Source: Escherichia coli (GTDB taxonomy: Bacteria > Pseudomonadota > Gammaproteobacteria > Enterobacterales > Enterobacteriaceae). Taken from it: DNA of 64,000 nucleotides. The stretch lies in the NCBI RefSeq assembly GCF_030013595.1, contig NZ_CP122768.1; one strand, given 5' to 3'. The position numbers were made by a program. Positions 18,001 to 21,000 of this stretch are shown one piece after another (position 1 is the stretch's first letter; each line of letters begins with the position of its first letter).

Positions 18001-21000
18001 GGAAGTAACAACGCCGACAGAAGAAGAACAGCTCGCCGGAATGGTCCGTGAAGTTATTGATGCGGCCTGCAAGCCAGCCCTGGAAAAACTGGAAGAAATA
18101 TCCGGGCGCTGGCTATGAATCGTGGGATTGTCCCTGCAGCAGGAAACAATGATCAGAACGTTAAGTTGGAAATTGTTCGGAACGCTGGTGCCGATTACTT
18201 CGCGCAACTAATTGGTGCTCAACGGTTCCTGGGATGATTTAAATACACGCGCTTTCCGGCGCATTAATACAGTCTGAGGGGAAGTGTCATGTTTATGAGC
18301 AAGGCAGAATATGCCAAACACAAAGGCGTAAGCCGCCAGACAGTTTACGACTGGATCGAGAAAGGCGAAGTGGTCATGTCCGGTAAAAAAATCGATGTGG
18401 AAGCGACAGAGCAGCGGAACAGCCCACCAGCACAGGGAAAAGATACCGTTTCTGAAATGTGGCCAGAGAGAACGCTGGAAATGACGTGGGGCGAGTTCTG
18501 GAAAGCAGTTAAGGCCAGAGACGGTAAAATCCCTGCACCAGTAACGGACGATGACATACAGCAGCGTGTGCAGGATGCAGCCGGGGAACTATGCTGTGAA
18601 GTGCAATTTCTTGATGATGGTGCTATCTGCCTTGAGGATTATGCTGGGCAATATTACTTTGAGCAGTATGATTTTCGGGAAAATGCCAGGCTGGCAATTC
18701 GTATGCTGCGTTGTGAGCTCTGCTATGTTGCAGGTGATTGTCCCGATGAGCTGGATAACTGGAGTGAAGCCGGACTAAACGCCCTGGCTGAGTGGGAAAA
18801 ATCATCCCATTAATGACCGTAAAATTCGCGAAAAGTGTCAAGTCAGGCCGTCTGCCGGGTTGACACTTTACACTCTGAACGCGAAAAAGTGTCAACCTCG
18901 CTGTAAGCCCCGCCATTACTGGCCTTTCGCCAGATTTACCACGTCAAAAAGCCGAAAAAATCGCGAAAAGTGTCAAGTTGCCATGCTTAGAAATGCTAAG
19001 GTTTGATAAGGTTTTTCGCGAAAAAGTGTCAAGTGTGTCAACCTGCGATGTTAAGATTTGTTAAGGTCTTAAGCCGGAAAGTGTCAACCAGCCCCTAAGA
19101 TTTCCTAAGGTGTAAATCATGACCATCACCGAAGCCGATATGCTGGAGATGATCCGCAGCATTGCCGGAATCAGACCACCAGCAGGCAAACAGGAGGCCA
19201 CGCAGCCGGACAGCGTTATCGCTGAGAACTATGCGCGTGTGGTGGCTGAGGTGATGCGCCGTGACGGTATTGAGCTTAACGGAGTGGATATGCGCGACAT
19301 ACGCACCAGGGTACTCGAGTTATTGGCCTACCGTCGCCGCGTGCAGATGTACCGGGAGAGCGAGAAAAAGACTTACCAGTGGAAGAAGCCGGAGCGGTTA
19401 CGGCGGTAACCAGTTGATAAAAAGGCTCCTCAATTTTGAGGAGGGTAGCTGGTGGCTGGCAGAATGTAAATTTACATTCTGGTGATTTAATCATCTGATT
19501 TACCCGATGGCTTACCTTACCAGGCCATAGCGGATTACCGTGCAATGCGCACCATCGCCACCAATACGCACATCAAAACGTGGCTCACGGACTTTCACAC
19601 GCTCCAGCAACTTATCACGAACCATAGCGTTTAGCGTCCTTCGTGTTGCCTCTATGTGATATCGCTGATATTCGGAACCATAGAGCAGCACTGTAACACC
19701 ACGAACATCAAAAGGTGGATCTCCAGCCTCCACCCGCACCCAATCGCGATACTCAGGTTTGTAGAGTTCAAGGATCTGTTTTTTGTGCCTGGTCATTCTC
19801 ATGCGTGCAACTCCTTATTGTGGGACAGTACTGTCATACAATAAGCTATACGGAAAATTATCAAAAGAACAGAAACCAACCATTCAGATTTAACAGGTAT
19901 CAATGGGATTATGCTTATGGTGCATGATGACAAAGCGGAAGAACTGGAAGCGAAAGGCTTATGGCGACGGGCGGCTAATCGCTGGGGTGAGTTACTGAAA
20001 CAGGCGGCAAGTGATGAAGCGCGTCAGTATGTAACGGAACGACGAACGGCATGCATCCGGAAGGCAACCATAACCCGGGAACCGGAAAGAGACCTGATTT
20101 GTGCCATAAGAACCGCCGCCACAAAAACACTAACGGATATGGGGATCGACCTGAAAAAAGAAGATCCACTGCGGGGCATTCAGCACGGACATACAAAGCA
20201 GGATAAACGCAGGAAGTAAATTTTTTCGTGTAACCAGGCAACCGACTATCTGAAAGATAGTCACACCCTACCGGGATCACGCTAGTAACGCACAACAGAG
20301 TGACCCATAGCCACCCTGTTTAACCGTTCCGGCTGGCTGGGCAGATTTTGCGCGGGTCTTATAGTCCCTCACAACAGAGTAAATAAAATTGACTTGGTTA
20401 CAGAGTAACCAAACCGGAGATTCCCGGTTTGCTCAAAAAATGACAATGAGTTACGCCCCTAACCTAAGTAATCCTTACATTCACTGCATCATCACCATGA
20501 TGGTGACGCAGCCCACCAGCAACCATAACGATTTCCGTTACAGTTGATGTGCTTTTTTGCTGGTAAGGCGTAACCCGTTGATTGTTCCAGAATCCACCAT
20601 CGGTGGAAGTTGAAAAACTCACCCGCCAGATTCTGAATGGTGAAAATCACCGGGGATCTGAATAGGCATTTCCTCTATGGAGGTCGCACCGTTTTCGGGA
20701 GAAGGTGCGATCATGTTCGTCATACCTGTTCCGTTGAAACGGAATACCCCATTCCGGCGTAGCTGGTGGACGCACAGCCACATACGAAAAATTGCATTCA
20801 GGAGGGGGGATCGAAATCCCTACCCCCCATTGCTTATGGGACCGCCCGCCCCGTCAAATTTTTACACCCGCGAAATTAAAAAAATGCGTCGCGCTGGTGG
20901 GCCTGATGCCGATATGGGGATTCCCATAACGGGTTATCCATGATCATCCACCAGCTTGATAACGGATAACAGGGGATGCGAAATCCTCAAGCGAGTGATA

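Follow-up and report, generated by a model that had tools for sequence, protein, structure and literature searches.

The stretch of DNA analysed here (the window) comprises 64,000 nucleotides of Escherichia coli contig NZ_CP122768.1 (NCBI RefSeq assembly GCF_030013595.1), and the element under study is a non-coding repeat array at positions 18825..19112, near the right end of an integrated island. The array lies between the gene of a 174-amino acid (aa) helix-turn-helix (HTH) protein, which we call HTH174 (18289..18813, plus strand), and a 96-aa gene of PHROG 1561 (19119..19409, plus strand), and it occupies the entire 305-bp non-coding gap (18814-19118) from the stop of the 174-aa open reading frame (ORF) at 18813 to the start of the 96-aa ORF at 19119. 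A first-pass annotation of the window had described about seven copies of a short motif interleaved with CTAAG dyads directly downstream of a TerS-like HTH gene, and had proposed either a packaging site or an operator for the downstream genes.

Six exact copies of a 10-mer, AAAGTGTCAA (motif A), are found in the window, all within 18832-19087 and none outside; the expectation from shuffling is 0.11 copies, and none of 100 shuffles gets to six. Five copies are on the plus strand, starting at 18832, 18886, 18967, 19023 and 19078, and one, starting at 18860, is inverted, so that the start-to-start spacings are 28, 26, 81, 56 and 55 bp. A seventh, partial copy (GTGTCAACC, 19035-19043) adjoins the fifth, which bears out the earlier count, and a longer form, CGCGAAAA(A)GTGTCAA, is common to four copies. 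The interleaved dyads are likewise real. This second motif class consists of four pairs of xTAAG pentamers in 10-bp phase: CTTAG-AAATG-CTAAG (18986), CTAAG-GTTTG-ATAAG (18996), TTAAG-ATTTG-TTAAG (19051) and CTAAG-ATTTC-CTAAG (19095). Three of the dyads (18996, 19051 and 19095) fit the pattern YTAAGR-N5-TAAGG in full, and the one at 18986 departs from it at a single position; no perfect fit exists outside the array in the 64-kb window.

The proximal three copies of motif A (copy 1, 18832..18841, plus; copy 2, 18860..18869, minus; copy 3, 18886..18895, plus) are without dyads and are followed by a conserved non-repeat block, GTAAGCCCCGCCATTACTGGCCTTTCGCCAG (18903..18933). The distal three copies each lie 5-9 bp upstream of a dyad and form three composite units, all on the plus strand. 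Unit A (18962..19016) consists of CGCGAAAAGTGTCAA, 9 nt and CTTAG-AAATG-CTAAG-GTTTG-ATAAG-GTTTTTCG; unit B (19017..19072) of CGCGAAAAAGTGTCAA with the partial copy, 7 nt and TTAAG-ATTTG-TTAAG-G; and unit C (19073..19112) of GGAAAGTGTCAACC, 5 nt and CTAAG-ATTTC-CTAAG-G, the final TAAGGTG of which doubles as the ribosome-binding site of the 96-aa gene. The GC content of the array is 41-51%, with no AT-rich unwinding element. A promoter and terminator scan found no sigma-70 promoter-like or terminator-like site in the array, and there is no Rfam match in 18000-21200.

The AlphaFold model of HTH174 (predicted local distance difference test score, pLDDT, 89) begins with a winged HTH of the Xis/TerS-DBD/Rpp/Cox class, continues with a disordered linker (residues 46-55) and ends in an alpha/beta C-terminal domain. 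Family matches of the protein are confined to residues 1-42. The best PHROG match is PHROG 57, annotated as terminase small subunit (E 4.8e-7, these residues only); a Cox-like PHROG is matched at E 1.6e-4, and in Pfam HTH_17 (E 5e-4, under the curated cut-off) and HTH_23 are both sub-threshold. Neither the oligomerisation core of TerS families nor any Pfam terminase family (Terminase_2, _4 or _5) is recognisable, NCBIfam gives nothing above cut-off, a PDB sequence search returned nothing meaningful, with no RppC match at E<=1, and a Foldseek search with the entire model gave weak HTH matches only. By structure comparison the fold of the N-terminal domain matches the DNA-binding domains of TerS proteins, that of lambda TerS included, as well as RppC, Xis and Cox; no TerS match to the C-terminal domain was found. 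Since only residues 1-42 match and the modelled C-terminal domain is alpha/beta, HTH174 is not a small terminase; its DNA-binding head is of the kind that TerS, Rpp, excisionases and Cox have. The N-terminal HTH noted in the first pass is thus present, with a likeness to TerS that is limited to the first ~45 residues. A sequence overlapping the HTH174 start codon, GGGGAAGTGTCATG (18273-18291), fits motif A at 8/10 positions and may be an autoregulatory site or a chance match.

Gene and array occur together in scans run in both directions. AAAGTGTCAA follows homologues of HTH174 in more than 110 islands from many Enterobacterales genera, down to about 35% protein identity. The N-terminal 42 aa of these homologues (including VSRQTVY-W) are nearly invariant and the remainder falls to 33-37% identity; the 10-mer is invariant, as is this N-terminal head. 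At loci found through the protein in species-representative genomes, the 10-mer lies within ~300 bp 3' of the gene in Pantoea, Raoultella, Pseudocitrobacter, Lelliottia, Enterobacter and Mangrovibacter; one locus in Serratia has its copies 1.6 kb downstream of the gene, and two Pantoea loci use GTGTAAAC instead. The reverse scan, of 2.9 million viral contigs with the DNA pattern TTGACACTTT-N10-25-AAAGTGTCAA alone, gave 108 loci, and an HTH174-type gene lies immediately 5' in the same orientation in 102 of them. Among complete E. coli genomes the array region is matched in 165 of 5,426.

The copy pattern is + - + + + (+) in close relatives and - + (+) in distant ones. Copy 1 is present in groups A and B of the relatives only, and copies 2 and 3 form a universal divergent pair with a start-to-start spacing of 26-27 bp in nearly all loci. 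Close relatives (L030, L072, L082, L092 and L113) carry an 8-bp microsatellite, (GCTTGCCA)n with n=1-7, between copies 1 and 2, at the position equivalent to window 18842-18859; because of this variable number of tandem repeats the spacing of copies 1 and 2 is free (28-76 bp), and that of copies 2 and 3 is fixed. The non-repeat block GTAAGCCCCGCCATTACTGGCCTTTCGCCAG is kept in group A and is recognisable as TTACTGG-N-TTTGC in Pantoea, Raoultella, Serratia and Enterobacter loci. The flank upstream of the gene is conserved (3 clusters in 22 loci, 6 in 52), and the flank past the array is hypervariable (15 and 37 distinct clusters in the same sets), with downstream content and orientation that vary from locus to locus; one example of this cargo is a PARIS-like AAA/DUF4435 pair in strain 55989. 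The array is the boundary between a conserved core and a hypervariable cargo region.

The 10-mer also occurs in two other settings. A second protein family of 186-209 aa, starting with MSLMSVSQYAKHAGMSRQALYTW, has five to seven copies upstream of its gene (L099 7350-7560, L169 10485-10666, and further loci in L144, L170, L174 and L182); the flank on the array side is conserved and the flank beyond the 3' end of the gene is variable, and the L099-type protein has no match in 50,697 phage records. In environmental phage contig L156 (11150-11900) about 12 exact copies of AAAGTGTCAA and AAAGTGTAAA variants surround an AT-rich stretch. Clusters of this type (also in L175, L179, L184 and L204) lie 1.2 kb upstream of a terL-portal operon, with no HTH174 homologue detected; they may mark an origin or a packaging region, or the 10-mer may have an unrelated use there.

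These contexts bear on the possibility that the array is a regulatory operator, at which HTH174 would act on AAAGTGTCAA as a Cox/Apl/AlpA-like transcription factor that represses, activates or insulates transcription at the junction of core and cargo, for example of the 96-aa gene or the cargo genes. Such a role fits the fold class of HTH174, and the L099-type family, with the same 10-mer upstream of its gene and, in L169, CII-like and gpA-like neighbors, recalls a regulatory setting; however, the CII/gpA side of L169 is the variable flank, and this P2-like context may be accidental. The array follows the upstream gene through differing downstream contexts (15/22 and 37/52 clusters), it is free of sigma-70 promoter-like and terminator-like sites, and the 26-81 bp spacings of the 10-mer are unlike the ~10.5-bp periodicity of Cox/Apl boxes. 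An operator would also leave unexplained the terS-like dyad and the cos-slot position that are described below. We therefore regard this reading as unlikely, and the earlier proposal of an operator for the downstream genes is weakened, since the array travels with the upstream gene and the genes after it vary.

An accessory replication or partition site bound by HTH174, either a second iteron cluster (crr-like) or a centromere, has to be weighed against the same comparison and appears very improbable. The island has an origin with iterons and AT-rich DNA beside the primase gene at 14.39-14.70 kb, built on a different motif. The array shows no AT-rich element beside an initiator gene and no co-variation with the initiator, as would be typical of replication iterons: its GC content is as given above, and AAAGTGTCAA stays constant while primase types (DUF927 or D5_N) and their iterons change. 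No partition ATPase is encoded in the island.

The position of the array is shared with a known module. The rppA/cos cassette of the satellite EcCICFT073 has been shown experimentally to be a packaging-redirection module (Fillol-Salom et al. 2019, PMC6739421). At its right end EcCICFT073 carries, in order, cosN (+), rppA, three ATGTCCGGTT repeats, cosN (-) and a 93-aa gene; the three repeats are ATGCCGGTT-like elements in an orientation like that of lambda R3/R2/R1. The 93-aa protein is 69% identical to the 96-aa protein of the window (E 3e-46), so that an orthologue of the 96-aa gene follows the EcCICFT073 cos site, and DNA homology between the two islands starts at window 19122, immediately right of the array, the left sides being unrelated. 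Because the orthologous 93/96-aa gene and the DNA homology begin right after both, HTH174 with the array and rppA with cos are, judged by sequence, alternative occupants of a single slot, before the PHROG-1561 gene at the core's right end, where Rpp/cos modules are found. Pairwise BLASTP of HTH174 against RppA aligns 25 aa of the HTH only (40% identity, E 2e-4) and so does not extend to homology of the whole proteins. A cosN of lambda/phi80 type with cosQ beside the repeats is absent from the window. The lambda cosN sequence GGGCGGCGACCT, which occurs twice in EcCICFT073, is absent from the island, where its sole match with two mismatches lies inside the primase gene, and the window has no P2 cos. 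Since neither lambda cosN nor P2 cos is present in the island, a different type of helper is expected.

A candidate helper is suggested by the DUF2213 head-morphogenesis-type gene of the island (17465..18118, plus strand; Pfam DUF2213), the product of which shares 54% identity with a portion of a 430-aa head-module protein from phage Rac-SA53. The late region of Rac-SA53 encodes terS (Terminase_2), terL, portal, the DUF2213 protein, capsid and, further on, a lytic transglycosylase, the gene of which is also present in some island variants. When the array was compared with 18.6 kb of this late region, the top two local matches both fell on one site inside terS, in the codons R-L-I-R-N-D-K-V-F. 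The first, TGATAAGGTTTTTCG (19004-19018), matches at 15/15 positions (E 0.004), and the second is AGAAATG[C/A]TAAGGTTT. The dyad of unit A, ATGCTTAGAAATGCTAAGGTTT (18983-19004), agrees with phage terS ATGCTAAGAAATGCTAAGGTTT at 21/22 positions, and the Enterobacter island L017 agrees with the phage terS dyad at 24/24. Because the DUF2213 head gene is shared and the terS dyad is matched, we take phages of the Rac-SA53 type to be likely helpers of the island. In the 35 group-A arrays, a 16-mer within three mismatches of the terS dyad is always present and is within one mismatch in 24; all of these matches are on the plus strand of the gene, and background windows never fall below four mismatches. 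The array could in principle be a terS pseudogene remnant; no such remnant exists in the island, and this was rejected.

The dyad in terS is under constraint as DNA. Scanning viral contigs with TAAGAAATGNTAAGGTTT gave at least 120 matches, nearly all in TerS ORFs at R-[ML]-[LI]-R-N-x-K-V. In 109 of 120 both half-sites are of one type (CTAAG/CTAAG 46, ATAAG/ATAAG 43, TTAAG/TTAAG 20), the ATAAG class being drawn partly from low-GC phages, in which codon bias alone could yield it. A control pattern with the ATTT spacer gave heterogeneous matches, with no TerS context and no covariation of half-sites. In order to avoid ascertainment by DNA, we collected a further set of 80 terS loci (77 unique genes) through peptide patterns located elsewhere in the protein. 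The codons of the motif are nearly fixed (CTA 45/46, AGA 67/77, AAT 74/77, GCT 52/52, AAG 68/68), those flanking it are free (CGC, CGA, CGG or CGT for the preceding Arg, GTC, GTT or GTG for the following Val), and the five-codon window is 4th lowest of 211 in synonymous variation. Because synonymous sites are frozen within the motif and flanking codons vary, the 15-mer CTAAGAAATGCTAAG is constrained at the DNA level. In pac phages such as P22 and SPP1, terS often contains pac, and the terS-internal dyad is, from these patterns, probably a pac element of Rac-SA53-like phages. Across the terS set, synonymous sites are frozen most strongly in the AQKTA and QKKEA codons (alignment columns 58-62 and 81-86), and Rac-SA53 terS carries a second 10-bp-phased repeat, CTGCGCAAAA x2 (L223 4529-4547), coding for TAQK-like repeats; the 5' half of terS may accordingly hold other elements that act as DNA.

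Candidate helper and island are found together in at least two strains. A terS of the Rac-SA53 type is present in 888 of 5,426 complete E. coli genomes, and strains STEC719 and U90 carry both the island and such a terS. In STEC719 the island lies 6 kb from a complete Rac-SA53-like prophage, the matched terS segment of which is 100% identical to that of Rac-SA53. In this strain (L542 1-47400) and in RM9088 (L001), an island of the same family is inserted between abgR and smrA, within a few kb of ttcA, where Rac integrates; the complete STEC719 prophage, with its LT-II and Epl toxin genes, is at this site.

A parallel of modest statistical weight comes from EcCIMP1, a validated satellite, in which a 12-14-mer, GACAAGTACGCG, is present twice in non-coding DNA; in Kapi1, the helper of EcCIMP1, this 12-14-mer finds its best match within terS. 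In its non-coding stretch EcCIMP1 has GACAAGTACGCGCGCG x2, with the Kapi1 match at L543 18879-18892, and no match to this repeat region was found in the phage collection. EcCIMP1 also contains TGTTATGGAT x3, which resembles a group-C dyad, TGTTATGGTTTGTTATG; these EcCIMP1 repeats lie at L136 ~4100-4420 and 3825-3860. It was rejected as a characterised member of the present family, as it is without an HTH174 gene and without AAAGTGTCAA.

Matches to helper terS would also be expected of a terminase decoy, in which the pac-like dyads titrate helper TerS and cause interference with no packaging start of their own. Near-copies of the terS-internal dyad in several units are compatible with this, as is the fact that satellites commonly hinder helper packaging, for example through Rpp and Ppi (PMC6739421). 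Still, the few sites of one island copy make a weak sink. A satellite also needs a packaging site, and the searches of the window for lambda cosN and P2 cos turned up no alternative to the array. The EcCICFT073 precedent, moreover, joins interference and packaging in one module. A decoy as the full explanation is accordingly quite improbable, and titration is possible as an additional role of the array.

The repeats, their linkage to one gene across genera, the fold class of its product, the slot shared with EcCICFT073, the terS match and the synonymous constraint on it are established here. With confidence somewhat better than even, we suggest that the array is a cis-acting, pac-type packaging-recognition region of a satellite of the phage-inducible chromosomal island (PICI) type, with HTH174 as its specificity factor, and, at the same level of confidence, that it is a composite region in which sites for an Rpp-like island protein stand beside mimics of helper pac. 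This suggestion is also made because the core/cargo boundary recalls the cos of P4/P2 and the pac of Staphylococcus aureus pathogenicity islands (SaPIs): cargo and defence genes sit just beyond cos in P4/P2 (PMC9122126) and just beyond pac in SaPIs (PMC12829572). After induction, HTH174 would bind AAAGTGTCAA through its N-terminal TerS/Rpp-like winged HTH, with the divergent pair 18860/18886 as the nucleation site. The 10-bp-phased xTAAG dyads would imitate the terS-internal dyad of Rac-SA53-like helpers, and the variable C-terminal domain of HTH174 would recruit or re-target helper TerS and/or TerL onto them. Headful packaging would begin on the island and move to the right across the cargo, a direction suggested by the orientation of the dyads. 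Such a scheme would follow the logic of Rpp, in which an island protein and helper TerS act on island-specific repeats. From the observations above we infer which protein binds which motif, the identity of the terS dyad as pac, the recruitment and the direction of packaging. The packaging idea of the first-pass annotation gains indirect support in this way from slot, fold, terS-like dyad and core/cargo boundary, and it loses the small terminase, which the 174-aa protein is not; the two motif classes probably bind different proteins.

Several observations weigh against this packaging reading. The fold class of HTH174 is common to excisionases and Cox/Apl regulators too, and the related L099-type HTH family has AAAGTGTCAA upstream of its gene, in a context that is unclear. 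HTH174 and the array have no BLAST match in the 50,697 phage records, and a search of 18.6 kb of Rac-SA53 did not find AAAGTGTCAA. Unit A alone copies the terS dyad closely; units B and C vary more loosely from it, with ATTT spacers that lack a TerS counterpart. The dyads of group C (TTGAG, TTATG and TTCAG types: GTTGAGATTTGTTGAG, TGTTATGGTTTGTTATG and CTTCAGAAAACTTCAG) resemble the terS dyad no better than the closest background windows do, and no phage counterpart was identified for them. The C-type terS of viral contigs was not matched by megablast in any complete E. coli genome; the Rac-SA53-type terS of E. coli carries ATAAG half-sites. The conserved cluster of rare codons (CTA AGA) in terS could serve translation instead, and some of the statistics for packaging are post hoc.

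C-, A- and T-type xTAAG half-sites are all present within the one array. This leads us to a more tentative extension of the packaging reading, which we hold to be possible and rather less than probable: the array may be a landing pad for several helpers, in which the invariant AAAGTGTCAA anchor, read by a new Rpp-like protein family, is paired, unit by unit, with mimics of differing helper pac sites. In the helpers, the pac dyad would lie inside the codons of the TerS DNA-binding helix (R-M/L-L/I-R-N-x-K-V), and the terS half-sites would co-vary with the encoded residues (CTA..GCT, TTA..GTT, ATA..GAT). If this were true, one mutation path would alter the reading head of a terminase and its site together, and the array would both supply the missing packaging module of 'type C' PICIs and define pac for Rac-like phages.

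Many enterobacterial PICI-like islands of 'type C', which are discussed for EcCIMP1 and which the present island resembles, are without a recognisable packaging module, and the authors doubted their functionality (PMC11773190). The module proposed here for them would consist of an uncharacterised protein family and a defined 10-mer array, in many genera beyond E. coli. It would also give a candidate pac element for Rac-SA53-like phages, which are able to carry LT-II and Epl toxins. If packaging does run rightward, cargo and neighboring chromosome would be packaged first, which would favor their exchange and explain the pile-up of cargo and defence genes past the array. In the papers searched, the 10-mer and the dyad gave unrelated primer-like matches or nothing. 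On this computational basis the module appears new in detail; satellite packaging-specificity modules as such are already known.

The island spans 7026-21101, that is 14.07 kb between 19-bp direct repeats, TTCCCTTCGCCCGCTCCAA, at 7026 and 21083. The attL core (7026..7044, plus) is the 3' end of tRNA-Gly-CCC (tRNA 6970-7043) and forms the left island end; the attR core (21083..21101, plus) forms the right end. Repeats of a different sequence from the array motifs, GTGTATAG, adjoin both cores and are putative integrase arm-type repeats. It could be argued that the array itself holds arm-type sites of attP for integrase or excisionase, and we give this next to no probability: attR is 2 kb away from the array, with intervening cargo that varies in length among relatives, and near attL there is no AAAGTGTCAA. 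The positions of the att cores and their distinct arm repeats exclude it.

From left to right the island encodes an integrase (7169-8422), a small HTH protein, an AntA/B antirepressor, Icd-like and DUF4222 proteins and a D5_N primase, followed by GGTAGAT iterons, ProQ/FinO-like and PerC-like genes and two head-morphogenesis-type ORFs (DUF2213 / PHROG 6216), and then by HTH174, the array and a few variable genes. By its architecture, with an integrase, an AlpA-type HTH protein, a primase with origin, att repeats, a size within ~10-20 kb and no lysis or tail genes, the island is, on sequence grounds, a PICI-type phage satellite. Of its two PerC-family genes, one is in the core (16114-16401) and one in the cargo part (19911-20219); PerC-like genes of related islands are said to modulate expression from the enterocyte effacement locus, LEE (PMC11773190). 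Past the cargo, the short conserved boxes TTACAGTTGATG and TAACCCGTTGAT (window 20536-20548 and 20564-20607) recur near the right ends of otherwise different islands, likewise at L222 3700-3842 and L003 ~9365-9385.

There are three separate arrays with three motifs in the island: the GGTAGAT iterons (14390-14700), AAAAGTGAGGA (15106-15425) and AAAGTGTCAA (18832-19087). The gene immediately before each array probably encodes a DNA-binding protein: the primase, a 115-aa ORF with a PHROG-2850 C-terminus and HTH174, respectively. The AAAGTG core that the first-pass annotation saw in common between the second and third arrays is there in the sequence, and an evolutionary link is not: among 35 close and 70 distant relatives, which without exception keep AAAGTGTCAA, arrays of the 15.1-kb motif, AAAGTGAGG, are confined to 4 of the close ones. 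With AAAGTGAGG so rare among carriers of AAAGTGTCAA, we rejected kinship of the two arrays and take the likeness as coincidental.

Among known systems, several share single features with the array. In lambda cosB (R3-I1-R2-R1), which is bound by gpNu1, several short motif copies of mixed orientation likewise adjoin a gene whose product, a winged-HTH reader, has the same fold; unlike cosB, the window array is without an adjacent cosN, lies downstream and not upstream of the gene, and has a second motif class. In P4/P2 a conserved cis site, cos, also borders directly on hypervariable cargo (Rousset et al. 2022, PMC9122126), whereas the window is without P2 cos and the island, having no psu, sid or delta genes, is not P4-like. 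The pairing of SaPI TerS-S with the SaPI pac site (10.1101/2022.09.08.507074) differs in that HTH174 is no TerS homologue: it matches no terminase Pfam family, and residues 1-42 alone are TerS-like. The window module is accordingly no strict TerS/pac pair. P2 Cox and 186 Apl boxes and BldC arrays involve proteins of the same fold class that bind repeated short motifs, but these arrays are tight, with ~10-11-bp periodicity, and lie at promoters or att sites; the 10-mers of the window are 26-81 bp apart, at neither a promoter nor an att site. The closest system in function is rppA/cos1 of EcCICFT073. Each of the two cassettes lies near the right end, in the slot that follows the morphogenesis genes and precedes the 93/96-aa gene. 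The small protein that each encodes begins with a winged HTH of TerS type and continues with a different C-terminal domain, and short repeats of mixed orientation adjoin its gene. The window differs in its motif, in having more copies and interleaved helper-pac-like dyads, in the absence of a lambda-type cosN/cosQ, and in its likely helpers, which would be Terminase_2 (pac-type) phages of the Rac-SA53 kind, not lambda or phi80. The proposed logic would be the same in the two islands, with an island protein that redirects the helper terminase to an island-specific site.

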